Virus record (IMG/VR): IMGVR_UViG_3300038379_000173
Location: 1 to 64,000 of that record
DNA from: a virus
Taxonomy: Duplodnaviria; Heunggongvirae; Uroviricota; Caudoviricetes
Direction: 5' to 3' (one strand)
DNA: 64,000 bases
In this document: in pieces, positions 1,844 through 39,133 of the stretch
Position numbering within the stretch: the first letter of the stretch is position 1
Layout of the letters: each line of letters opens with the position of its first letter
Made by a program: the position numbers and the translations under genes
The notes under the pieces: generated by a model
Told to the model about the DNA's origin: nothing
Seen by the model: only the letters and a program-made list of their open reading frames with translations
Databases searched by the model: none

Positions 1844-2075
1844 CGACATCCTAGGCGAATTGCTACGTCATAGCTGGCTTCGGCTGGAAATACATATTGT
1901 GTCCCCAAGGGGTTAACGGTAGGCTACCATCGCCAAACTATACTACCCAATGATATGATTAGCAATGTGGGCGGCGGCCGTGGGTCCGTTATTCAAGTAA
2001 TGAGAGGTTCGAGACCTCTGCCGCTCATTCATTACAAATGATTCCACGGTGTGGAACACGGAGTGTGAGTAAAAA

Positions 2076-6283: not shown

Positions 6284-6826
6284 GTGACAAACATGTGGTT
6301 TACGTCTGACACCCATTTCGGCCACTCCAACATCATCACCCTCAGTGCAAGGCCATTCTCCTCCATTGAGGAAATGAATGAGGGATTAATCTCCCGTTGG
6401 AATGAGTGCGTTAAAACGTCAGACGTTGTCTATCACTTGGGTGACTTCTCATTTCGACCGGCTTCACAGTTTCGTAGGAAACTCAACGGCCGCATCTGCC
6501 TCATAAGGGGCAATCACGATAAGGATAAGTTACTAAAGGACGCCGGCTTTGAATGGATTAAGGACGCATATAATGCGCGCGGCGACACAGAGCGTTCAAT
6601 TGGCGCGCGCTTTTGGTTGTCGCACTATCCGCATAGGGCATGGCCGCAAAGTCACAAAGGTTCCTTCCATCTCCATGGCCATTCGCACGGAAATATGCCA
6701 CGGTTGGGCCGCTCGATGGATGTTGGGGTGGACGTAGAAGGGCGCTATCGCCCCTGGCATATCGACGAAGTAATAGATGTATTGAAGGATGCCACAACAA
6801 CAGAACATCATCCGAAGGAAATGTAA
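6284..6826 (+). CDS. calcineurin-like metallophosphoesterase
   Basis: motifs SDTHFGH, GDFSFR, GNHD, GHSHG; start at GTG 6284 or ATG 6293. Confidence 0.8.
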   Translation: MTNMWFTSDTHFGHSNIITLSARPFSSIEEMNEGLISRWNECVKTSDVVYHLGDFSFRPASQFRRKLNGRICLIRGNHDKDKLLKDAGFEWIKDAYNARGDTERSIGARFWLSHYPHRAWPQSHKGSFHLHGHSHGNMPRLGRSMDVGVDVEGRYRPWHIDEVIDVLKDATTTEHHPKEM

Positions 6827-6961: not shown

Positions 6962-7213
6962 TTGTGTTGTAGCGTATATCATTGCTTAATGAGCATTACT
7001 CAATTAACTTCGTTTGCTTATCATTTTGATGAAAAGACCGTTGAGCTTTGGCTGGTAAAAGCCGATATCACAAAACAACAAATAACTACTGATAAAGTAG
7101 CAGTAAGGTCCATTAGACTATTGCGGCAATTGCCTATACCACGAAAGCTCCCAAAGACCAAGAGTGGTTGGCGCACACAGTTGAAACATTGGGAATTAAG
7201 GGCGGATTTTTAA
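6962..7213 (+). CDS. hypothetical protein (83 aa)
   Basis: ORF only; weak support. Confidence 0.3.
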   Translation: MCCSVYHCLMSITQLTSFAYHFDEKTVELWLVKADITKQQITTDKVAVRSIRLLRQLPIPRKLPKTKSGWRTQLKHWELRADF

Positions 7214-7224
7214 GTTGCGCAGCT

Positions 7225-7950
7225 ATGGACGAACATTCACTTTCCGCCGACGTTATATTAGAAGTTATCCATGGTTCAAGGGCCTATGGTACCCACCATC
7301 CTGATAGCGATGTAGACTACAAAGGGGTAGTGTTGCCAACAACCCCTGCCATTTATTTTGGATTTGGACACTTCGAACAGAAAGATAAATGGGCCGACGG
7401 CGTTGACCGTGTATGGTACGATTTGCGCAAGTTTTGCCGACTGGCCCTGATGTGTAACCCTAACATCATTGAGGTCCTTTGGGTGCCGCCAGAATGTATT
7501 AAGGTGTGCACCGATATTGGCCACGAACTCATAGAAATGCGCCAGAGTTTTCTTTCCAAAAGAATCTTTAGGTCATTTGCCGGGTATGCTTATGACCAGG
7601 GAAAGAAATTGGCGGCAAAGGTAGAAAGAGGCGAACAGCCAAACTGGAAACATGCTATGCATCTAGTGCGCCTTTCTAGGATGGCGAACGAGATAGCAAG
7701 TAATGGTTCCATTATAGTACGGCGGCCGGACGCAGAAGAATTGAAAGAAATACGCGCCGGCCGTTGGAGTTACGACAAAATTATGGCGCATGTCGAGTTC
7801 CTAAAGGAATCCACGCACGTCCTTGAGAGTAGTAGTCCGCTACCAGTCCACCCTAATGATAGGGGCGTTGAGGAGTGGGTGGTTGGAGTGATACAACGGA
7901 GATTGCTTGGCGATGATATATATCGAAATTATGGATGCGTTAAAGAATGA
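7225..7950 (+). CDS. pol-beta-superfamily nucleotidyltransferase
   Basis: G-S-x9-D-S-D-V-D motif (GSRAYGTHHPDSDVDY) near the N-terminus; track ORF starts at TTG 7168, ATG at 7225. Confidence 0.7.
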   Translation: MDEHSLSADVILEVIHGSRAYGTHHPDSDVDYKGVVLPTTPAIYFGFGHFEQKDKWADGVDRVWYDLRKFCRLALMCNPNIIEVLWVPPECIKVCTDIGHELIEMRQSFLSKRIFRSFAGYAYDQGKKLAAKVERGEQPNWKHAMHLVRLSRMANEIASNGSIIVRRPDAEELKEIRAGRWSYDKIMAHVEFLKESTHVLESSSPLPVHPNDRGVEEWVVGVIQRRLLGDDIYRNYGCVKE

Positions 7951-8725: not shown

Positions 8726-9391
8726 GTGCTCGATAGAGATACAGTTATAAAAAGAGCTGCCGATAACCTAACACGCATTTGTAATCTATCAAATGCCATA
8801 GAAGAAGTAATATCATCAAAAGACCACGTATTGGTGGGCTCAGCGGTATATAAAGCCCTTTGGGGAATAAACAAAAATATCCGTCACATATGCACCAACT
8901 ACGATTTTTTAGTCTGGGACCGTCCGGATGTCACAAAAGTAATGGCGGCATTTACCAGTGTGGGACTGACTCCGCAAGGTATAAGTAGCTCTTATGGCGG
9001 AAGTGCATTACAAATTACTCTCGCTGGCGAATTAACTGTCGATGTCGTATATGCCCCAGCTATGTCTTGGGACTGTCTCAATGAATTTACAATCCGAACA
9101 CCTCTAACGCACCAGGCCGTCTTCTTTTCAGAAGTGTCCTATCGACGTGGAGTATCTGCAAGTTTGTCCCTACAAGGCCCTGGGATTGACGATGCAATGG
9201 CCGGACAATTTAGAATCAATCCCACTGGGGATTTTAAACCCTCCGTACAATATCCGACAGTAGAAAGCTATGCTGCAGCAATAGCCGCGCGCACTGGATT
9301 TAAATGGTTAGACAGCACACCAGAAAAACACAAGTGTCGTTGTGATATTGTCACTTTGATGGGCCGCGGATGTAAATGTGGCGGGATATAA
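8726..9391 (+). CDS. hypothetical protein (221 aa)
   Basis: GTG start with ggag upstream. Confidence 0.5.
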   Translation: MLDRDTVIKRAADNLTRICNLSNAIEEVISSKDHVLVGSAVYKALWGINKNIRHICTNYDFLVWDRPDVTKVMAAFTSVGLTPQGISSSYGGSALQITLAGELTVDVVYAPAMSWDCLNEFTIRTPLTHQAVFFSEVSYRRGVSASLSLQGPGIDDAMAGQFRINPTGDFKPSVQYPTVESYAAAIAARTGFKWLDSTPEKHKCRCDIVTLMGRGCKCGGI

Positions 9392-9394
9392 AAT

Positions 9395-10129
9395 ATGAAC
9401 GACTTCGAAAAACTCATTGCGGCCCTCCCGGCCCACCGTTTGTATGTCGATACTGACGGCGCCCAAGGCGCTCGAATTGAGATGGTGGGCGCAAACCTCT
9501 GGGGCGCAAATCTCAGGGGCGCAGACCTCAGGGGCGTATACCTCAGTGGCGCAAACCTCTGGGGCGCAAACCTCGAGGGCGCAAACCTCAGGGGCGCAAA
9601 CCTCAGGGGCGCAAACCTCTGGGGCGCAAACCTCTGGGGCGCAAACCTCGAGGGCGCAAACCTCAGGGGCGCAAACCTCTGGGGCGCAAAGCTCGAGGGC
9701 GCAGACCTCAGGGCTGCAAATCTCGTGGGCGCAAACCTCGGGGACGCATACCTCGGGGGCGCAAATCTCGACGGCGCAGACCTTTCTAACGCCACTCTCC
9801 CAGACTTTCAATTGCCAGAGGGAACGTTGACCGCCTACAAGTTGTGCAACGGTATCTTGGTTACCCTCGAAATTCCGGCAGAAGCACGCCGCACTGCTTC
9901 GCTTGTCGGGCCCAAATGCCGCGCGGAATTCGCTATCGTGCGCCACGTGGACCATCCGTGGAAGGTTGCACGTAGTAGTGCTCAGCGTCCTCATAATACG
10001 CCCGAGATTGTCTACACGGAGGGCTCTACCGTTTTCCCGGATTTGTTTAATGACGACATTCGCGTAGAGTGTACGCACGGCGTACATTTCTACAGGACTA
10101 AGGAAGAAGCATTGGCGAGCGGGTTTTGA
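9395..10129 (+). CDS. pentapeptide-repeat protein with ~100-aa C-terminal domain
   Basis: about 20 consecutive GANL(W/R/E) pentapeptides; the C-terminal domain is duplicated at 1..315. Confidence 0.85.
   Translation: MNDFEKLIAALPAHRLYVDTDGAQGARIEMVGANLWGANLRGADLRGVYLSGANLWGANLEGANLRGANLRGANLWGANLWGANLEGANLRGANLWGAKLEGADLRAANLVGANLGDAYLGGANLDGADLSNATLPDFQLPEGTLTAYKLCNGILVTLEIPAEARRTASLVGPKCRAEFAIVRHVDHPWKVARSSAQRPHNTPEIVYTEGSTVFPDLFNDDIRVECTHGVHFYRTKEEALASGF
9488..9786 (+). repeat. 15-bp tandem repeat array (ggcgcaaacctcNNN, ~20 units) inside the pentapeptide-repeat CDS
   Basis: visible periodicity encoding G-A-N-L-x; also explains spurious long antisense ORFs 9268..9795 and 9308..10201. Confidence 0.85.
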
Positions 10130-10130
10130 T

Positions 10131-11261
10131 ATGAAATTACAGCCACTAAATGTCCTTTTAGACGGTAAATTAGATGGTCCGCTAGACCCTATTAGTGTCA
10201 TCCGTCACTTTCATCCATCTCTCCCGCTCGTTGGCCTAAAATACCATAAAACAGAATCCCCAAAATTCCATCCCATCGTGCGCCAATGTCGCGGAACTGT
10301 GTTGGAGTTACCAACCTTTCGTATAGTTGCCCGCCCTTTCAACCGCTTCTTTAATCTCCACAAGGATGTTGACGGCCAGGAAGGCTTCACTTGGAATCAC
10401 TTTACAGCCGAAACGAAGGAAGATGGCACACTTATCATCGCATTCAATTACGAAGGAAGATGGTTAATTAAAACAGGGGGTAGTTGGGCTCTCGGCAATA
10501 TTACCGCAAATGCGCCAACGTGGCAGCAGGCATTTTTTGATATCCTGCCGGTAGCTAATTTTTCTGTTTTAGACCCAGCCTATACTTATATGTTCGAATT
10601 GTGTACGCCATACAACAAAGTAGTAGTAAAATACGACCAACCCAAAGTCTTTCTTCTTGGTGCTATAAATACCTCGTCTGGCTGGGAATTAGACCATTCC
10701 GTGCTGGATTATATTGCTAGCCGCCTTGGATGTGCGCGACCTACAGTTTTTAGTTGCTCAGGCAATAGTGATTTGAAACGCCTAGTTGATAGTCTCTCTA
10801 AAGGCGATGTCAAGGAAGGTTTCGTACTACGCGATATAGCGTGCAGACGTATCAAAGTAAAAACGGCAGAATATCAAGCCCTACACCATCTAAAGGACAA
10901 CGGCAACATACTGCTGCCGCGGCGCTTGGCCGCCCTTGTGCTCTCTTCGAGGGAAAAAGAAACTCTCGCCGTATTCCCTGAAATGGCCGGGGCTCTGTCA
11001 AAGGTATCCGCAGACCTATATAATGCTATGGCGGACGTAGAGAACCTTTGGTGGGCCCACCGACAATTAAGCCGCAAGGATTTTGCGATAGAAATAAAGG
11101 ATACCCCATTTACGTGGGTGCTCTTTGGTCTCTATACAAATCCACCGAGTGATGTTCGCAGCACAATCTATGCAGCATTTGCGAATAACGTCGAGAAGGT
11201 GGCCCAAAAATTGTGGGGCGGCCAGGTGTTTCAGTTTGATTGTGCAGCGGCAGATGAATAG
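10131..11261 (+). CDS. rnlA: T4 Rnl1-type RNA ligase
   Basis: 376 aa (T4 Rnl1 is 374 aa); nucleotidyltransferase motif I K-E-D-G-T (ETKEDGTLI) matches T4 Rnl1 KEDGSL. Confidence 0.8.
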   Translation: MKLQPLNVLLDGKLDGPLDPISVIRHFHPSLPLVGLKYHKTESPKFHPIVRQCRGTVLELPTFRIVARPFNRFFNLHKDVDGQEGFTWNHFTAETKEDGTLIIAFNYEGRWLIKTGGSWALGNITANAPTWQQAFFDILPVANFSVLDPAYTYMFELCTPYNKVVVKYDQPKVFLLGAINTSSGWELDHSVLDYIASRLGCARPTVFSCSGNSDLKRLVDSLSKGDVKEGFVLRDIACRRIKVKTAEYQALHHLKDNGNILLPRRLAALVLSSREKETLAVFPEMAGALSKVSADLYNAMADVENLWWAHRQLSRKDFAIEIKDTPFTWVLFGLYTNPPSDVRSTIYAAFANNVEKVAQKLWGGQVFQFDCAAADE

Positions 11262-11442
11262 GACAAAAGACTGGATAATCATCATTTTATTCATTATCTT
11301 TATTTTACCGGGCAGCTTGATTTCTAAAATAAGACATCAAAATGGTAAATATGATGACGTAGACAACGCAATTACTTTCTGGATATTTTTTTTGAGTGCA
11401 ATCATGGTATGTTATATTTGGATATACGCCTCTGTGGTTTAA
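11256..11442 (+). CDS. small membrane protein (62 aa)
   Basis: ATG overlaps the Rnl1 stop; strongly hydrophobic (WIIIILFIIFILPG...). Confidence 0.45.
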
Positions 11443-11553
11443 GAAGTAGTATGAAACTTTGTATCTCGAGTAATGCGAAGTTAATATTACTTCATAGGAA
11501 AACGTCGCTTCAGAAAGCGAAGATTGCTGGCACGAACCCAGCCTGGGGCATTT

Positions 11554-11659
11554 GGACATGTAGCTCATAGAGTGTGGTTAAGATGCGCACTTAATCCTAC
11601 GCGGATAGAGCACCGAGTATTTAATTCGGAGGATGTAGGTTCGACTCCTACCGTGTCCG
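11554..11659 (+). tRNA. tRNA-like gene, anticodon TTT (Lys), with ~31-nt insertion in the D-loop
   Basis: acceptor GGACATG/CGTGTCC (one G-U); U8; D-stem GCTC/GAGC; anticodon stem CCGAG/TTCGG; loop TATTTAA; 5-nt variable loop; perfect T-arm GTAGG-TTCGACT-CCTAC; discriminator G; total 106 nt. Confidence 0.5.
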
Positions 11660-11668
11660 TATGGAGGA

Positions 11669-11959
11669 ATGATGAATACTGTAGAAATTCTTCGTAATGT
11701 AGATGATATCTTAAGCGATGAAACAAAATGGTGTAAGCATGAGATGATAAACAGCAACGGCGCGTGTTGTTTGTTAGGCGCACTAGAATTAGCAAGCCCT
11801 GATGATTGGCCCACCGAAGCAAGGTTATTGTTGTCTCAAGTAGTTCAAAAAAGAGGACACAATATGGTTATAACGTTTAATGACGCATACAGTACGTCTT
11901 TCAAAGACATCAAAGAGGTAATCCAAGAAGCCATAGATATGGCATCAAGAGACGTATGA
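11669..11959 (+). CDS. hypothetical protein, paralog family X copy 1 (KWCK...CCLLGAL...FND...FKDIKEVI)
   Basis: RBS ggagg before ATG; related to 39592..39915 and 11956..12313. Confidence 0.55.
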   Translation: MMNTVEILRNVDDILSDETKWCKHEMINSNGACCLLGALELASPDDWPTEARLLLSQVVQKRGHNMVITFNDAYSTSFKDIKEVIQEAIDMASRDV

Positions 11960-13121: not shown

Positions 13122-13448
13122 GTGAGCGATGAAATATTGCGGCGGGCCCACAGGAATTTTGTTTCTGGCGCTCTAGACCCTCTTGAATATTATCAATTGA
13201 GATTACGTTATGGCCTGAGAGACCCAAAAGTTACGCCTGTGGTTGGTGATATTGTGTTAGTATACGGTGAAACTAAAGTTTTCTGGAAAAGAAAAGTGAC
13301 GCATGTAGATAAAGATGGTATTTATTGGGTTTTCACAGAAGCGTGTGATGAAGAATATCTAAGTTACTCTTCTTGTTCAGGAAGTAAATTACCACAAAGT
13401 TTGTGGTACTCAGAATTCTGTTATCCTCTTGTCTATGGTGATGAATGA
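13122..13448 (+). CDS. hypothetical protein
   Basis: GTG start inferred from the upstream in-frame stop; weak RBS. Confidence 0.35.
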   Translation: MSDEILRRAHRNFVSGALDPLEYYQLRLRYGLRDPKVTPVVGDIVLVYGETKVFWKRKVTHVDKDGIYWVFTEACDEEYLSYSSCSGSKLPQSLWYSEFCYPLVYGDE

Positions 13449-13870
13449 GGGGCTATGTCGCCATTGGACTATTCTGTCCTTCCAAAGACGTTAATATTGG
13501 CGGCACAATGCGCGCAGCTTACTGTTACGGGGCCGGCTTAGTCGTAATCCAAGGAGTATATAAGCGTTACAGCACCGATACTGTTGCCGCCCACCGACAT
13601 ATTCCAACAGTACTCTGCACTGACATCCTAACCAACATCCCCTATGATTGTGTGCCTGTCGCCGTAGAGATAGTAGAAGGAGCGCGACCTTTGCCATCCT
13701 ACACACACCCACAAAGAGCCTTTTATATCTTTGGCCCTGAAGGCGGCTCGTTACCAGAGAGAATTTTGAAAGGTTGCCGCGATGTTGTTTCTATTCCAAC
13801 GCGCGCCTGTATGAATTTGGCGGCCACAGTAAATGTTGTATTGTATGACAGGGCGGCTAAAGGTCAATGA
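13445..13870 (+). CDS. SpoU-family (SPOUT) RNA 2'-O-methyltransferase, minimal TrmH/TrmL-like
   Basis: 141 aa; motifs IFGPEGGSLPE and CMNLAATVNVVLYDR typical of SPOUT methyltransferases. Confidence 0.7.
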   Translation: MRGYVAIGLFCPSKDVNIGGTMRAAYCYGAGLVVIQGVYKRYSTDTVAAHRHIPTVLCTDILTNIPYDCVPVAVEIVEGARPLPSYTHPQRAFYIFGPEGGSLPERILKGCRDVVSIPTRACMNLAATVNVVLYDRAAKGQ

Positions 13871-16280: not shown

Positions 16281-18374
16281 ATGAAATTGCAAGTGCCCGA
16301 CACCCCAGTGGTACGCTCAGGACCCTTTAAGGAAACCTCCTTCGGTTTTGGTGACCAACGAGTCATCATGGACATTCTTCGCCGCAGGATGTACCCAAAT
16401 CCTATAAAGGCTATCTGCCAGGAAGTGATGTGTAATGCGCGGGATGCTAATAGAGAGGCTGGGAGGGGCGAAGAACCGATTGTTGTGCGTATACCAACCG
16501 AACTTGCGCCAACCTATGAAGTCTCGGACCACGGACTAGGCATAACCCCCGAGAGAATGGAGGGCGTTTTCGTTCTTTATGGCGCCAGTACAAAGCGCGC
16601 TGACAACATCCAAACCGGCGGCTTTGGATTGGGCGCAAAAACTCCGTTTGCCTACTCAGACTCCTTCACTATTAGGACAACCAGTGATGAATCTGATGGT
16701 GTTAGGCGGACAAGACTCTATAGTGCCTATATTGATGAAACTCAGCTAGGCAAATTGGCTGAGATGTCAGTTGCAGTTACCCCGGACATGCCAACCGGCA
16801 CAACAATAAGTGTGGCAGTTAAACCAATTGACTTTCGCGCGTTCCTTACCTACTCCATTAGAGCCTCCAGGTGGTGGACACATAAACCATCCATACTACA
16901 CGCTAAAGTTACATGGCCAAATAGTTCTCCTGTCGTATGTGGCACTGACTGGTTCATTTCAAATGATGGTGATAGCGGAGTTTTGGTCGACGAAATTGAA
17001 TATCCACTCAATTGGGACTATACAGACAAAAGAAACGTTTTCCACTATATCTCATTGTTTATTAAATGCGGCGCAGCCGAAGTAAGCGTAAATGCTAATC
17101 GCGAAGAATTAGACTATAACGCAACCACAGTAGAATTCCTCAGAACTCGTATTGATGGAGTAATTGAGGAAATAAAAGAGAAGATAAATAAGGAAGTAGA
17201 AAGTGCGCCAAACCTCCTAGAGGCCATTTACACTTGGGAGAGCAAATCCGCCGCATTGGGCAACCTCTTCTATGGAATTACGCCAACGTGGCGTGGCAAA
17301 AAACTCTTTCGTACTATAGACTTTGGTCTCTGTCCACTATTATCAACAACTGATAAACTAGCAGACCATTTGTCGTTCACTAACGTGGAACGCGCAGTAG
17401 TAATGTATGGCAAACCAATTCGCTCATATCATAATAGGGCTTATATATCTGTCAAAACAAGGTGTCTTTGCATTGAAAATGATACTGGTAAGCCGCTAGA
17501 TAAGCGTATGCTGGTAAGCAGTTTTACGGCCGACGCTACCCTCGATTACATTTGGGTTGTAACGTTTAACAGTCAACACGGCCGCGATTGGCTTGAGAAT
17601 ACCTATTCGTGGAGCGACCTAGCTCCAATCAAACTCTCCACTCTCCCAATTCTCCCACTCCCAGTCCCGGATGGAGATGAGGAGAAGGAGGAGGAAAAGT
17701 TAGTAAGAAGGACACGTCCAAAGGGTTACAAAATCATTCCTGTCAAGCGTATCCAGGATGATGGGACAATAGTTAATGACGAAAATAAAAAAGTCGTTGA
17801 CCAGACTGGCGGCGTGTATGTATTAAAGCGCGACAACTATCTCTGGATGGTGAATGGAAAGAAAGTGCGCGCCGAAACAGTAGTAGAGGCCGCCAAGTGG
17901 CTCGGAGTCATTCCATACGTAATTTTAAATAGACACCACGAAAAAATATCTGTAAATTGGGTAAGTCTAGATTGCGCTCTCGAAAAACGCTTTAAAGAAA
18001 TACAGGACAGTGATGATTATAAAGCGTATATGACGTATGGAGAAGATGCTCATGTTGCAACCCTTTTTGGTAAGGTAACCATTAATGCTTTAAGTGCACA
18101 TAAATGGAGAGTAAGTAATTCATTCACCGAATGGCTAAACAAAACTCGTTTAGTGTTAGAAGGTCAGAAAAAACGAAACAGTTTGCACAAATATTGGACA
18201 ATGCTTTATAACACACCGCTTCTGACACCAGAAAACAAGGGTGTAGAGTTATTAGAAGAAGTTCATAAAGAATTTCCGCTTTTTATGTTCTTGACTAGGT
18301 CGTATCGTTTAGATTTTGATACGGCAACCAATGACCTAATTTCGTATTTTGAATTGAAAGGAACACCAGTATGA
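16281..18374 (+). CDS. rIIA: rIIA-like protein with N-terminal GHKL-type ATPase fold
   Basis: 697 aa; N box EVMCNARDA, G1 box DHGLGI, G2 box GGFGLGAK; followed by a translationally coupled rIIB-sized gene. Confidence 0.6.
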   Translation: MKLQVPDTPVVRSGPFKETSFGFGDQRVIMDILRRRMYPNPIKAICQEVMCNARDANREAGRGEEPIVVRIPTELAPTYEVSDHGLGITPERMEGVFVLYGASTKRADNIQTGGFGLGAKTPFAYSDSFTIRTTSDESDGVRRTRLYSAYIDETQLGKLAEMSVAVTPDMPTGTTISVAVKPIDFRAFLTYSIRASRWWTHKPSILHAKVTWPNSSPVVCGTDWFISNDGDSGVLVDEIEYPLNWDYTDKRNVFHYISLFIKCGAAEVSVNANREELDYNATTVEFLRTRIDGVIEEIKEKINKEVESAPNLLEAIYTWESKSAALGNLFYGITPTWRGKKLFRTIDFGLCPLLSTTDKLADHLSFTNVERAVVMYGKPIRSYHNRAYISVKTRCLCIENDTGKPLDKRMLVSSFTADATLDYIWVVTFNSQHGRDWLENTYSWSDLAPIKLSTLPILPLPVPDGDEEKEEEKLVRRTRPKGYKIIPVKRIQDDGTIVNDENKKVVDQTGGVYVLKRDNYLWMVNGKKVRAETVVEAAKWLGVIPYVILNRHHEKISVNWVSLDCALEKRFKEIQDSDDYKAYMTYGEDAHVATLFGKVTINALSAHKWRVSNSFTEWLNKTRLVLEGQKKRNSLHKYWTMLYNTPLLTPENKGVELLEEVHKEFPLFMFLTRSYRLDFDTATNDLISYFELKGTPV

Positions 18375-19432
18375 CAACAGTAGTTAATTTTCTCTTCACT
18401 CCTCAAAGTGCCATTATCATTACAGATGATGGGCGCGCACATACGGCTCTAAAAACTTCCGCGGACTTCCAACGTATTACTGGGCTGCTCCTGGCCGGCA
18501 AGAAGCAAGAAGCTCTAGAAATGCTGGATAAGTCAACGGCAATCAAAAAAGTATCTAAGGGTCATTTTAATATTGTGGATGGTAATGTAGTAATAGATGG
18601 TGAAGTGCTGCCGCCCGCCTTGTCTAACAAACTCATCGCCCTGCTGGAAAGCGGCCAAGATACAAGCCGCCTTGAGTCCTTCTGGGACAACTTGTCACTT
18701 AATCCTTCTGAGCAGTCCAAGGCAGACCTCTTTAAATTCCTCGAGGCTAACAAATTCCCACTGACTAAAGATGGGTGTTTTTTGGCGTACAAAAAGGTAC
18801 GTGACGATTGGAAAGATTGTCATACTGGCTCGTTTGATAACTCTCCTGGGAAGGTCGTAAGTGTGGATAGGGCTAATGTAGACCCAGATAGTTCGCGCAC
18901 TTGTTCGTATGGCCTACACGTTGCCGCCCACGAGTATGCAAAAGGATTTAGCTCCGGCCGCCTACTGGAAGTTAAGGTAAACCCAGCGGATGTAGTTTCA
19001 GTGCCGCCCGACCACTCTCAGCAAAAGATTCGGACATGTAAATATGTTGTGCTGCGCGAAGTTCCAGAAGACCAACCAGAATGCTCAACTGAGATTTTCG
19101 ATGGCGACGAAGGGGCTGCCCCGATTGTCGAGGCGCTAGGCGTCGTAAAGGTCCATGTGGATGGAGAGGGTCGACTCCGCATCCCCGGGAAGTTTGTAAG
19201 GTCTATTGGATGTGGGGTTGGACACACCGTAAAAGTTGTGGCGTCTAATGATGTTGTGACAGTTGAGAATATCGAAACGCCCTACGCATCACAAGATGCA
19301 GAATTGGCCACCTACAAAGTTCAGGATGATAACTCAGTGCGCCTCAGTGCATCGGTGCTAGACCAAGCTGGATTTGGTAGGCGCTCCGTTATTAACGTTG
19401 AGAAGGTAGACGGAGTCCTATGTCTTTCGTAA
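18371..19432 (+). CDS. rIIB: rIIB-like protein
   Basis: 353 aa, ATGA-coupled to the rIIA-like gene; call rests on size and synteny, weak on sequence. Confidence 0.45.
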   Translation: MTTVVNFLFTPQSAIIITDDGRAHTALKTSADFQRITGLLLAGKKQEALEMLDKSTAIKKVSKGHFNIVDGNVVIDGEVLPPALSNKLIALLESGQDTSRLESFWDNLSLNPSEQSKADLFKFLEANKFPLTKDGCFLAYKKVRDDWKDCHTGSFDNSPGKVVSVDRANVDPDSSRTCSYGLHVAAHEYAKGFSSGRLLEVKVNPADVVSVPPDHSQQKIRTCKYVVLREVPEDQPECSTEIFDGDEGAAPIVEALGVVKVHVDGEGRLRIPGKFVRSIGCGVGHTVKVVASNDVVTVENIETPYASQDAELATYKVQDDNSVRLSASVLDQAGFGRRSVINVEKVDGVLCLS

Positions 19433-19608
19433 ATTGCCCTAATCACGGTCCGGATGGTAAACAACGCGGTATTTTATACACGCAGCGCCAAAATTGTCTT
19501 CTTTGTGCTAAGACTCCCGAACATCCCAATAAATGCTCCTGTGGCGAAGAATGGGACGAGGAAGATAGCACAAAAGTCTGTTGGAGATGCGACGGAAATA
19601 GAGAATGA
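19420..19608 (+). CDS. small Cys-rich protein (62 aa)
   Basis: ORF with CPNHG...CLLC...CSCG...CWRCDG. Confidence 0.4.
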   Translation: MSFVNCPNHGPDGKQRGILYTQRQNCLLCAKTPEHPNKCSCGEEWDEEDSTKVCWRCDGNRE

Positions 19609-19614
19609 TTTGCA

Positions 19615-19700
19615 CAGGGCTGGCCCGGCCCTGGCGCACGGGCGCGAAGCTGAGCGGGGTCCCCACGGGGTCGAAGCGCGAGCAGGGCGGCCAACACATA
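19615..19700 (+). terminator. GC-rich cluster of stable hairpins (terminator or regulatory RNA)
   Basis: cagggc-tggcccg-gccctg (19615..19633), gcgc-acgg-gcgc (19634..19645), ggggtccccacgggg; GC far above the local average; lies between two + genes. Confidence 0.4.
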
Positions 19701-19713
19701 GGATGTATAAAAA

Positions 19714-20937
19714 ATGACCATCACTCGCCTCATTAAAACAGACGCAGATGCTAACAATAATAAGTTTTGGGAAGCCGTCCTAGACCCCAATGGCGATAAA
19801 GTAATGTGCCGCTGGGGTAGGGTTGGCGCAAACGGTCAGCGCAAAACATTCAACGGCGGCCAACATTACATTGATAGGAAGGTCAAAGAAAAAACTTCCG
19901 AAGGATATGTTATCGCACAGGTTGTTGGAGGCGGCGAAACTATCACATGTGATACTAGTGCCATCAAAACTATTGCACGTCAGCAAATTGTAGCAGACAA
20001 AGAAACAGTCGCCCTTGTAGATGAATTGGTTGCGTGGAACATCCATAATATAACACAAAAATCTACGATGACAGTAAGTGTCTCATCTGGTACTATCTGT
20101 CTGCCGTCCGGTCTAGGTGTGCTGACACAGTCCGCAATAGATGAGGCCCGTAGACTCCTAAACACCATCGGCAGTAGTTCCAGGACAAATGACCCGGCTG
20201 GACACAAAACTGTTATCAACAAATACCTTTCCCTCGTTCCACAGATTGTTCCGAGAAAGCGCGGCTGGATTAATACCATTTTTTCTACACCCGAAGAAAT
20301 TGCCGCTCAAGAACATCTTTTAGATTCGCTCCAGGCAACTATTCAGACCCTTACACCGACTCAATCTTCTAAGGTCTTTGATGTTACGCTGAACAAACTC
20401 CAAGATGGGAATGAAGTTGGTCGCATTACAAGATTGTATGACGCAACGCGTCAAAACATACACCAGTCGTGTAGTCTACGACCAATCAATATCTATAAAA
20501 TAACTATGGGTGCAATGCGAGAGCGATATAACAAGTGCCAAGTTGGTAACCCAATGGAGTTATGGCATGGAACTGGAGTTGGCAACCTATTATCTATTTT
20601 GAAATGCGGCCTCATAATCCCATCTCATGCTTCGCATGGCCGTAACTTTGGCAATGGAATATATTTAACTGACCAATCTACAAAGGCACTTAATTATGCT
20701 GCTGGTTATTGGGATGGTAGGAGAGAGAAGCGATGTTTTATGTTTTTGGCAAACGTAAAAATGGGCCGGCCGTATACACCAGGGCCATATGACAGGAGTA
20801 ACTTCCCTCGGAGCGGCTATGACAGTGTATATGCCAAGGCTGGCTTCTCTGGGATTTTGAACAACGAAATGATTGTGTACGATACAGACCGAGTCGATTT
20901 AACATTCATTGTTGAATTTTCTGAAAGGGCATTATGA
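19714..20937 (+). CDS. PARP-like ADP-ribosyltransferase (N-terminal WGR domain + PARP catalytic domain)
   Basis: WGR: FWEAVLDPNGDKVMCRWGRVGANGQ; catalytic: ELWHGTGVGNLLSILKCGL (H-G-T), GNGIYLTDQSTKALNYA (Tyr), NNEMIVYDTDRVDL (Glu) align to PARP1 LLWHGSR / GIYFAD / YNEYIVYD. Confidence 0.85.
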   Translation: MTITRLIKTDADANNNKFWEAVLDPNGDKVMCRWGRVGANGQRKTFNGGQHYIDRKVKEKTSEGYVIAQVVGGGETITCDTSAIKTIARQQIVADKETVALVDELVAWNIHNITQKSTMTVSVSSGTICLPSGLGVLTQSAIDEARRLLNTIGSSSRTNDPAGHKTVINKYLSLVPQIVPRKRGWINTIFSTPEEIAAQEHLLDSLQATIQTLTPTQSSKVFDVTLNKLQDGNEVGRITRLYDATRQNIHQSCSLRPINIYKITMGAMRERYNKCQVGNPMELWHGTGVGNLLSILKCGLIIPSHASHGRNFGNGIYLTDQSTKALNYAAGYWDGRREKRCFMFLANVKMGRPYTPGPYDRSNFPRSGYDSVYAKAGFSGILNNEMIVYDTDRVDLTFIVEFSERAL

Positions 20938-38749: not shown

Positions 38750-39119
38750 GGGGGTGAATTAGCTTCGATTAGTATTGCCAAAATATCCGTGCAGGTCGTG
38801 GTGGAGTAGGCCACGTTAAACCGCTCCAAAGTTTAAATGCCAAGACTACGGTCAAAGCAAGCCGGTTCGCCGGCATCCGCGGCTATCGCGTTGTTCGCAG
38901 CGCGCCTGTCGCACTCGTCGCCTAACGAGCAATTAGGTAAAGGCTCCGGGCCTCCTCTCGGAAGTTCCTATGAGGAGTCTAAGTAATAGGTACTAATACA
39001 TAGACTATTTGCTCAATAGAAATTGAGATAGGTTGGTTGAACCGACAAAACAACCCAAGCTTGTGGATGAATGGATATAGCGGAATATTGAGACGCGGGT
39101 GCAAGTCCCGCCACCTCCA
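38750..39119 (+). ncRNA. ssrA: probable tmRNA (ssrA), CCA not encoded
   Basis: 5' GGGGGTG pairs with 3' CACCTCC including a G3-U wobble; discriminator A; T-arm GCGGG-TGCAAGT-CCCGC; 3' end GACGCGGGTGCAAGTCCCGCCACCTCCA closely resembles the E. coli ssrA 3' end; 5' GGGGGTGAATTAGCTTCGA resembles tmRNA 5'; internal frame ends ...SAPVALVA-TAA at 38923..38925; about 370 nt with no protein ORF. Confidence 0.6.
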
Positions 39120-39133
39120 TCGAAAGGGGTTTT

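Follow-up and report, generated by a model that had tools for sequence, protein, structure and literature searches.

The locus at positions 11554-11659 of the phage record IMGVR_UViG_3300038379_000173 (Caudoviricetes) raises the question of whether a sequence that resembles a tRNA-Lys(UUU) gene, but is interrupted by a hairpin in its D-loop and carries A33 in its anticodon loop, is a real gene, and if so, what kind of molecule it might specify. The window referred to below is the 64-kb stretch of this ~167-kb phage contig that was examined. The element proves to be an authentic gene of the phage, encoding a tRNA-Lys(UUU) variant of expanded structure, and its unusual anticodon loop, UAUUUAA, is found together with expanded D-loops in tRNAs of other phages.

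Structure and authenticity of the element

The 106-nt element lies on the + strand, has no encoded CCA, and reads GGACATG TA GCTC [ATA-GAGTGTGGTTAAGATGCGCACTTAATCCTACGC-GGATA] GAGC A CCGAG TATTTAA TTCGG AGGAT GTAGG TTCGACT CCTAC CGTGTCC G, with the D-loop given in brackets. All four stems (7, 4, 5 and 5 bp) are perfect in the sequence and in the folds, comprising 21 standard or G-U pairs, of which three are G-U. T8 and A9 sit between the acceptor stem and the D stem, A26 separates the D stem from the anticodon stem, the variable loop is the 5-nt AGGAT with G46, and the set of tertiary-contact bases is complete (U8, A14, G18G19, A21, A26, G46, G53, T54, T55, C56, A58, C61). The unconstrained minimum-free-energy fold of the element is the cloverleaf, with z = -3.0 relative to shuffled sequences; the energies are -21.9 kcal/mol for the cloverleaf alone, -31.2 kcal/mol with the long hairpin and -36.3 kcal/mol for the minimum-free-energy structure. 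The D-loop corresponds to an ordinary 8-nt loop, A-U-A/G-G-A-U-A, with a 33-nt hairpin placed between position 16/17 and G18, in the solvent-exposed, length-variable alpha region of this loop, and with G18G19 (11603-11604) directly 3' of the hairpin. Another pairing is possible in the inserted segment, namely GAGTGTG/CGCACTT plus ATCC/GGAT, and the 73-nt product obtained by removing 11570-11602 folds into a perfect cloverleaf. The first-pass annotation of this DNA had described a tRNA-Lys(UUU)-type gene with A33 and a D-loop insertion of ~31 nt; sequence, fold and in-silico deletion confirm this, with an insertion of ~31-33 nt, and every cloverleaf element that it listed is present at its place in the sequence. 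The small hairpin that it pointed out, TTAAG-ATGCGCA-CTTAA, is likewise present, and extends into the irregular 11-pair hairpin of 11570-11602.

Run with its defaults on the whole window, ARAGORN detects no tRNA, and the Rfam tRNA model RF00005 yields 18.4 bits against a gathering score of 29, with a match that covers the 3' part (11603-11659) only. This failure of the default finders is attributable to the D-loop insert, since in-silico deletion of 30-33 nt allows ARAGORN to call a tRNA-Lys(ttt), with a score that reaches 115% of the default threshold for the best deletion, 11570-11602. Thus, on the issue of whether any tRNA model scores the region, the default models do not, while a tRNA-Lys(ttt) is recovered after in-silico excision. 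The intron mode of ARAGORN proposes a tRNA-Arg(acg) with a 17-nt intron, which we reject as a forced and poor call: it shrinks the D-loop to 3 nt, accepts one G.A mismatch plus three G-U pairs in its anticodon stem, and makes a variable arm of the genuine anticodon arm.

A strict scanner, set to accept only four perfect stems, a D-loop length of 15-70 nt, T8 and a T-loop conforming to the consensus, returned the element as its sole match in the window; shuffling the window 300 times produced no match, nor did 506 kb of other phage loci coding for Rnl1-family RNA ligases contain any. The element is also present without a single change in an independent assembly of the same phage, L450 (Logan SRR12687280), whose identity to the window is 99.99% across 11.9 kb, so that chance and assembly artefact can both be rejected as explanations. 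Searches of INPHARED with megablast and blastn recovered generic tRNA similarity to the 3' half of the element only, an exact 21-mer and a degenerate pattern of the element gave no match in IMG/VR, and the degenerate pattern gave none in a metagenome contig collection that evidently does not include the source contig.

Departures from standard tRNA-Lys(UUU)

The element shows three departures from standard tRNA-Lys(UUU), namely the 33-nt D-loop hairpin, A33 in place of U33 and a discriminator G. As a control we collected phage tRNAs with the canonical CUUUUAA (CTTTTAA) loop, comprising 108 distinct genes among the matches listed. In 104 of these the D-loop is 7-12 nt long, as against 41 nt in the element, two further genes have D-loops of 24 and 95 nt, and the remaining two were left undetermined; the discriminator is A in 104/108 and G in none. 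U33 is nearly universal in tRNAs and forms the U-turn of the anticodon loop, and within the anticodon UUU it is U35 that constitutes the main identity element for lysyl-tRNA synthetase (LysRS). The fetched loci contain 291 strict canonical tRNAs, 276 of which have U33 and three A33. A canonical gene such as that at 1239-1313 of L242 shares with the element the 7-bp acceptor stem, U8 and A9, the D stem GCUC/GAGC, A14, G18G19, A21, A26, the 5-bp anticodon stem, UUU followed by A37 and A38, the 5-nt variable loop with G46, and the T arm with G53, T54, T55, C56, A58 and C61; it differs in that the element has the 41-nt D-loop, A33 for U33, U32 for C32 and G73 for A73, and falls below the default thresholds of Rfam and ARAGORN. 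Hence, among the hallmarks of a canonical tRNA, the four-stem cloverleaf and the conserved tertiary-contact bases are present, while a D-loop of ~7-12 nt, U33 and a model score at the curated threshold are lacking; as a prospective LysRS substrate it has the anticodon UUU (11620-11622) and G rather than A73.

Co-occurrence of the UAUUUAA loop with expanded D-loops

IMG/VR was scanned for the TATTTAA loop at the canonical distance from the T-loop, with no condition placed on the D-loop. As the patterns used in this and the other scans of sequence collections are restrictive, all counts from them represent lower bounds and not prevalences. The UAUUUAA loop recurs, in each case within a valid cloverleaf, in eight independent sets of phage contigs, with D-loops of 7 nt (L472), 8 nt (L464/L469), 9 nt (L465), 14 nt (L328/L329), 40 nt (L466), 110 nt (L327 and L474) and 112 nt (L326). 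Among the matches listed, and with the element itself left out of the count, the D-loop is expanded in five of the eight UAUUUAA tRNAs as opposed to at most four of the 108 controls (Fisher p = 4e-5). This recurrence of A33 with D-loop expansion in lysine-type phage tRNAs points to a selected function rather than decay.

The closest architectural analogue of the element is found on L466, a 165.8-kb contig, whose tRNA has a 40-nt D-loop with a long alpha-region hairpin followed by GGTA, the T-loop UUCGACU and the UAUUUAA loop; this contig has one weak protein match with the window, and homology is not claimed. In L326 and L327 the UAUUUAA variant is an extra copy, since canonical tRNA-Lys genes are also encoded there. 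Combinations of U32 and A33 with other anticodons were also encountered: nine distinct sequences with G34 anticodons (GCA, GCU, GAU, GUU) have normal D-loops, a count that is indicative as some derive from near-identical contigs, and one with the anticodon UAU (L485) has a 135-nt D-loop, again indicative given related sequences in the counts. Inserts of 110-135 nt have no conserved core in common. A general enrichment of A33 among tRNAs with D-loop inserts is weak (3/29 versus 3/203, p = 0.03, with one of the three doubtful) and is not relied upon.

Some of these contigs contain further unusual tRNAs. On a 455-kb phage contig (L328 1560-2010, minus strand, equivalent to L329 7665-8115, minus strand) the A33 Lys-type tRNA has a discriminator G, along with the 14-nt D-loop, and an encoded CCA. 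It shares a cluster with two amber-suppressor (CUA) tRNAs and with one to which ARAGORN assigns a 4-base anticodon (gcaa), a hint that recoding tRNAs, or other non-standard ones, are grouped here. The large phage arrays of L326 (3336-3474, 9495-9620 and 9679-9805, minus strand) and L327 (11715-11827, minus strand) include tRNAs of 113-139 nt that pass in Rfam with 38-50 bits and are missed by ARAGORN; their inserts lie within or beside the anticodon stem and show no bulge-helix-bulge (BHB) motif.

D-loop hairpins in other phage and bacterial tRNAs

A further scan of IMG/VR and GTDB sought loops of 30-57 nt closed by a GCTC/GAGC D stem and lying at the canonical distance from a T-loop. It recovered at least 119 loci in IMG/VR (L002-L120); among the matches listed 58 pass the stem checks, and after tandem partial duplicates are dropped there remain ~48 full cloverleaves, of many different anticodons, whose D-loop inserts form hairpins. 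Examples from viral contigs, with inserts of 28-55 nt, include L003, L005, L013, L015/L033, L016, L021, L023, L034, L050 and L054; that of L015, a contig labelled as a giant-virus metagenome-assembled genome (MAG), is a tRNA-Lys(UUU) whose insert bears a hairpin similar to an anticodon arm, ACAGG-CTTTTCA-CCTGT.

The GTDB matches listed include a chromosomal tRNA-Glu(UUC) from ~35 Solirubrobacterales assemblies (for example L123, L127, L139, L144, L145 and L234, from Solirubrobacterales or Solirubrobacteraceae MAGs), with the arrangement GCTC-AGTGGTCAACGG[hairpin]CCAAA-GAGC, in which a hairpin of ~14-18 nt capped by a tetraloop follows G18G19. Copies of this tRNA-Glu-type scaffold, with the anticodons UUC, CCU, UGC and UUU, are found in phages (L011, L018, L022, L024, L059, L061, L079, L102, L107). 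An alignment of 16 distinct members, phage copies included, displays compensatory double changes at five of the seven predicted pairs of the hairpin, with, for instance, eight double changes and, as the maximum, six pair types at columns 26/41, a level of covariation equal to that of the anticodon and T stems. This covariation implies that a D-loop hairpin can be a selected structural part of a bacterial-domain tRNA gene. The Solirubrobacterales tRNA resembles the element in having an extra D-loop hairpin on an otherwise canonical bacterial-domain cloverleaf, with copies in phages, and differs in the position of this hairpin after G18G19 (the beta region), its length, its tetraloops and its normal U33; the hairpin of the element, in contrast, precedes G18G19, is 33 nt long and is irregular. 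No description of the Solirubrobacterales D-loop hairpin was found in the literature searched, and searching it for tRNAs of bacteria or phages with insertions in the D-loop or D arm yielded nothing relevant, which is not proof of absence.

Comparison with known introns and tRNA-like RNAs

The first-pass annotation had left it open whether the gene was intron-containing, disrupted by an insertion or the source of a tRNA-derived RNA. The insertion stands, and the known types of tRNA intron do not. An archaeal-type intron is rejected because the search for a BHB motif, in both handednesses and with flanking helices as short as 2 bp, found none whose excision would remove 22-40 nt, under relaxed rules by which 17% of shuffled D-loops give such a motif by chance; the motif is also absent from the longer phage inserts tested. 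In the archaeal positive control L147 the BHB motif is present and its excision restores a canonical D-loop. Together with L216, L221 and L238 this locus makes up the archaeal matches of the D-insert scan in GTDB, which are probably known non-canonical introns. Archaeal D-loop BHB introns (e.g. PMC3241643) are similar to the insert in that a tRNA gene that is otherwise normal has a short sequence in its D-loop and regains a canonical D-loop on excision; they differ in that the element is devoid of a BHB and, as indicated by the bacterial-type transfer-messenger RNA (tmRNA) that the phage genome encodes, its host is bacterial.

A group I intron is incompatible with a 33-nt insert in the D-loop, as such introns are of ~200 nt or more with a ribozyme core of P3-P9 and usually lie in the anticodon loop. 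No Rfam intron or ribozyme family matched at E <= 10 locally or at E <= 5 across the window, and a self-cleaving ribozyme is likewise rejected for want of an Rfam match. YrlA/Y RNAs and other catalogued tRNA-like RNAs can also be set aside, the region 11300-11900 containing only the sub-threshold tRNA match (18.4 bits) and matches at chance level.

Genomic neighborhood and the RNA-repair genes

The genes around the element are tightly packed on the + strand (Table 1), with a 226-nt non-coding gap that houses the long hairpin and the tRNA. No convincing sigma-70 promoter or terminator was found in the structured leader (11443-11553). The Shine-Dalgarno sequence GGAGG of the DUF6197 gene starts 5 nt past the 3' end of the tRNA, and hence the two are probably co-transcribed. 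The DUF6197 gene is followed by a 97-aa open reading frame (ORF), a DUF7831 gene and a minimal SPOUT methylase, the weak nearest matches of which are TrmL (acting at position 34) and TrmJ (position 32). The presence of the phosphoesterase, RlaP, Rnl1 and SPOUT methylase genes supports the view that the wider neighborhood is a predicted RNA-repair or tRNA-modification cluster. Scans of the nearby ORFs against Pfam, NCBIfam and PHROGs uncovered no domain of a Pnkp-type kinase, with the calcineurin-like phosphoesterase being present, and no splicing endonuclease (EndA) turned up among the 28 nearby ORFs so scanned.

Table 1. Features of the element and its surroundings, in window coordinates
Feature	Coordinates	Strand	Basis and remarks
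Non-canonical tRNA-Lys(UUU)-type gene, 106 nt, no encoded CCA	11554-11659	+	cloverleaf fold; strict scanner; ARAGORN after in-silico deletion; copy in L450
Acceptor stem GGACATG/CGTGTCC, 7 bp, one G-U	11554-11560 with 11652-11658	+	sequence; folds
D arm, stem GCTC/GAGC	11563-11566 with 11608-11611 (arm 11563-11611)	+	sequence; folds
D-loop, 41 nt: A14-U-A, hairpin, G18-G19-A-U-A21	11567-11607	+	sequence; folds
33-nt insertion in alpha region of D-loop; irregular 11-pair hairpin, core GGTTAAG-ATGCGCA-CTTAATC	11570-11602	+	fold; best ARAGORN rescue
Anticodon arm CCGAG-TATTTAA-TTCGG; loop 11618-11624 with U32, A33 (11619), anticodon UUU (11620-11622), A37, A38	11613-11629	+	sequence
T arm GTAGG-TTCGACT-CCTAC	11635-11651	+	sequence; Rfam aligns region to tRNA model with high posterior probability
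Discriminator G	11659	+	sequence
Calcineurin-like phosphoesterase, candidate RNA end-healing enzyme	6284-6826	+	PF00149; phrog_547 E = 8e-55; syntenic in L001
RlaP nucleotidyltransferase	7168-7950	+	PF10127 E = 1e-20 (Pfam title 'RNA repair pathway DNA polymerase beta family'); phrog_388
Pentapeptide-repeat + DUF5758 gene	9395-10129	+	Pfam
Rnl1-family (T4 RnlA-type) RNA ligase	10131-11261	+	PF09511 54 bits; TIGR02308 E = 5e-18, below cut-off; phrog_562
62-aa ORF, two hydrophobic helices (predicted membrane protein), ATG overlaps ligase end	11254-11442	+	ORF list; absent from L001
Structured 5' leader: long imperfect hairpin 11443-11493 right after small-ORF stop, then smaller hairpins	11443-11553	+	fold of 11430-11675
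DUF6197 gene	11669-11959	+	PF19698; phrog_762; absent from L001
Minimal SPOUT (SpoU) RNA 2'-O-methyltransferase	13445-13870	+	PF00588; TIGR00185 and TIGR00050 far below cut-offs
Bacterial-type tmRNA, phage-encoded	38750-39122	+	Rfam RF00023, 89.9 bits, E = 1e-33

The ligase upstream of the element had been recognized as Rnl1-type in the first-pass annotation, and the profile matches bear this out. Its placement of the tRNA immediately downstream of that gene holds as to the order and not as to direct adjacency, the 62-aa ORF being interposed between the ligase stop and the element. It had further proposed that ligase and tRNA-Lys together form a counter-defence module, and this specific pairing is not conserved. 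With 170 homologues of the ligase recovered at E <= 1e-10, 86 Rnl1 loci (506 kb) were compared, five neighborhoods by protein identity and 80 by profile. Across these, tRNAs occur near the ligase in ~20 loci and are of mixed types (Leu-UAA in six, Met in four), without enrichment of tRNA-Lys; a single phage (L241/L242) has Lys-UUU near Rnl1, in the form of a canonical tRNA located 2.7 kb upstream of the ligase. None of the 86 loci has a tRNA with a D-loop insert and, conversely, Rnl1 is absent from the fetched loci of all 48 phage loci with D-loop-insert tRNAs. No protein common to the repair cluster of the window and the loci with other A33 or D-insert tRNAs was found. The closest relative, L001 (ligase 55% identical, 11-kb locus), has the same gene order of phosphoesterase, RlaP, ligase, DUF7831, SpoU and GP88, with the ligase running straight into DUF7831; it is devoid of the ~1-kb segment comprising the small ORF, tRNA, DUF6197 gene and 97-aa ORF. 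No tRNA was found in the L001 locus. Hence, the Rnl1-tRNA-Lys pairing is not a recurrent unit, and the repair-cluster context is suggestive.

As to individual genes of this region, the sole relative found for the DUF6197 protein is in the same phage (L450). The pentapeptide-repeat + DUF5758 gene is not visible in L001, and owing to its repeats, spurious ORFs of considerable length appear in its other frames as well as on the complementary strand (window 9268-10201).

Functional interpretation

The reading that we tentatively favor is that of a variant tRNA-Lys which retains the hairpin as a fifth arm and might be poorly handled by host enzymes or nucleases directed at tRNA-Lys. The RNA would be transcribed together with its flanking genes as part of a polycistronic message, its ends would be cut by RNase P and the 3' processing enzymes, and CCA would be added post-transcriptionally, since none is encoded. 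The hairpin would stay in the mature RNA as an arm projecting from the elbow, a fate that we would likewise favor for the Solirubrobacterales tRNA-Glu hairpin. Such a molecule would be lysine-decoding, or at least lysine-tRNA-like, and by virtue of its altered position 33 and altered elbow it could be used poorly as a substrate by host enzymes that act on tRNA-Lys, including anticodon nucleases such as PrrC, and possibly modification enzymes whose products those nucleases need. PrrC cleaves tRNA-Lys directly 3' of U33 (PMC2610378, PMC2275089). The variant would thereby complement the nearby candidate healing-and-sealing genes (phosphoesterase, RlaP, Rnl1) and the TrmL/TrmJ-like ribose methylase.

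Several points weigh against this proposal. As U33 forms the U-turn, A33 takes away the U-turn base and may impair decoding; G73, found in 0/108 controls, is atypical for tRNA-Lys and leaves it uncertain whether LysRS would charge the RNA; and a hairpin beside G18G19 could disturb the elbow contacted by RNase P and the ribosome. The yeast gamma-toxin cleaves more, not less, when U33 is changed to A (PMC2275089), from which it follows that any effect of A33 is enzyme-specific. The closest relative L001 keeps the repair cluster without any tRNA. The D-loops of 110-135 nt in the sister tRNAs are hard to picture inside the ribosome, which favors removal of the insert or a non-decoding role for those. 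No sequence homologue of the element was found outside its own phage. Lastly, AAA makes up 58% of the Lys codons in 18 genes of the window, giving no sign of a special tRNA demand; an explanation by codon supply is set aside, this figure being uninformative without the host.

Somewhat unlikely, in our estimation, is a non-decoding tRNA mimic, which would act as a decoy or sponge for a tRNA-Lys-specific nuclease or modification enzyme, or else as a processing signal at which RNase P and the 3' enzymes free the DUF6197 mRNA. A33, G73 and an altered elbow would be tolerable for a mimic and costly for a decoder, and the coexistence of UAUUUAA variants with canonical tRNA-Lys in L326 and L327, the position of the element right beside the DUF6197 Shine-Dalgarno sequence, and a second minimal tRNA-like fold at ~1967-2030 with a T arm and acceptor and no anticodon loop would all be in keeping with such a role. 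The improved cleavage of the U33A anticodon stem-loop by gamma-toxin would also be compatible with bait (PMC2275089). Nevertheless, the anticodon arm is perfectly kept, with its 5-bp stem, 7-nt loop and UUU-A37-A38, and recurrence of the identical loop in independent phages speaks for the loop sequence being itself under selection and not simply released from constraint; as for a pure processing signal, an acceptor and T minihelix would suffice.

That the insert is an intervening sequence, cut on both sides by an endonuclease, with the ends healed by the phosphoesterase and a kinase and sealed by Rnl1 to yield a 73-nt tRNA-Lys, appears unlikely. The cloverleaf that results from removing 11570-11602 is perfect and exceeds the ARAGORN default threshold, Rnl1, the phosphoesterase and RlaP are all encoded within 5 kb upstream, the 110-135-nt inserts of the sister genes and the anticodon-stem inserts in the same arrays look too disruptive to keep, and phage tRNAs with 'enigmatic introns' are on record from Lak megaphages (PMC6784885). 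The expected machinery and signals are nonetheless missing: there is no BHB in the element or in the longer phage inserts tested, no splicing endonuclease among the nearby ORFs scanned, and no match to a group I intron or self-cleaving ribozyme, and the long inserts have no conserved core. Moreover, Rnl1 and D-insert tRNAs are not found together in either direction (the 48 and 86 loci noted above), A33 and G73 would remain in the spliced product, and the Solirubrobacterales hairpin is conserved and covarying in a bacterial order that is not known to splice its tRNAs.

A decaying tRNA-Lys gene, disrupted by a small insertion or local duplication, seems quite improbable. It would account for three departures in a single gene (insert, A33 and G73), and the direct repeat ATAGAG at 11568-11573 and 11605-11610 would be the trace of an insertion or duplication; the whole 1-kb segment with the element is absent from L001, and many of the pattern matches elsewhere are tandem partial duplications of tRNA 5' halves. 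Decay is, however, hard to reconcile with 21 of 21 intact stem pairs, the retention of every tertiary-contact base, an insert placed exactly in the one D-loop region that tolerates length variation, a 226-nt non-coding gap retained in a tightly packed genome, and the recurrence of UAUUUAA with expanded D-loops in unrelated phages far above controls. Finally, we regard as very improbable a general scheme whereby proteins alone would excise phage D-loop inserts through cutting, healing and sealing (phosphoesterase or kinase, RlaP, Rnl1), with neither a BHB nor a ribozyme. Such a scheme would amount to tRNA splicing in a bacterial virus, the unspliced A33 form perhaps serving as a nuclease-proof reserve.

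Relationship to known systems and implications

The broader idea of the first-pass annotation, that a phage tRNA-Lys may counter defences which cleave tRNA-Lys, is established in the literature. The tRNA-Lys of T5 defeats PARIS, whose AriB nuclease cuts at 40/41, and changing one U-A pair to A-U in E. coli tRNA-Lys gives resistance to PARIS (PMC11464382); likewise, anticodon-loop variants of phage tRNAs escape anticodon nucleases (PMC10264068). The fifth-armed variant favored here would share with these nuclease-resistant forms the changes in the anticodon stem-loop of a phage tRNA-Lys. In T5 the change lies in the anticodon stem-loop of an otherwise canonical tRNA, whereas the element combines U33A with a D-loop hairpin. 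The repair of PrrC-cut tRNA-Lys by Rnl1 and Pnkp of T4 offers a second parallel, as an Rnl1-family ligase is encoded in the same genome and position 33 borders the PrrC site (PMC2610378); it is unlike the present case in that no Pnkp was seen among the ORFs scanned and the tRNA-Lys-ligase linkage is not conserved. In the Lak megaphages 'enigmatic introns' in tRNAs were called with the eukaryote settings of tRNAscan (Devoto et al. 2019, PMC6784885). These too are phage tRNA genes broken by short sequences and missed by bacterial tRNA finders; in the element the insert is situated in the alpha region of the D-loop and coupled to the A33 loop. Interrupted phage tRNAs (PMC6784885) and nuclease-evading phage tRNAs are thus already known, and what appears to be new, as far as the literature searched goes, is the D-loop position of the insert, its coupling to UAUUUAA and a covarying D-loop hairpin in a bacterial order.

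Since standard finders miss the element and its relatives, inventories of phage tRNAs are incomplete, and conclusions on codon supplementation, recoding and counter-defence that are drawn from them inherit this gap. Should nucleases directed at tRNA-Lys be resisted or baited by the variant, this would represent a structural escape route beside the anticodon-stem route of T5 tRNA-Lys; if the insert is removed, this would imply a tRNA-processing pathway hitherto unknown in bacteria or their viruses. The Solirubrobacterales tRNA-Glu, for its part, shows that structural selection can act on a five-armed tRNA gene throughout a bacterial order.

Other features of the window

The tmRNA is missed by ARAGORN at default settings; its T-loop is UGCAAGU as compared with UUCGAnU, it has no CCA, its 3' end being ...CCAUCG, and its predicted tag, AKTTVKASRFAGIRGYRVVRSAPVALVA*, is unusually long at 28 aa. 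A few kb downstream of the repair cluster (18371-20937, + strand, equivalent to 8303-10869 of L450) lie an rIIB-like gene and a WGR/PARP (poly-ADP-ribose polymerase-like) gene, as judged by Pfam matches on L450. The minimal tRNA-like fold at ~1967-2030 (+ strand) is intergenic and has the acceptor GGGCGGC/GCCGCTC, the T arm AGAGG-TTCGAGA-CCTCT and, where an anticodon loop might be expected, two short hairpins, GGCC-GTG-GGTC and CGTTAT-TCAA-GTAATG, the latter with a tetraloop. Its fold z-score of -0.56 is not significant and Rfam gives no match; it may represent a second tRNA-like element that does not decode.

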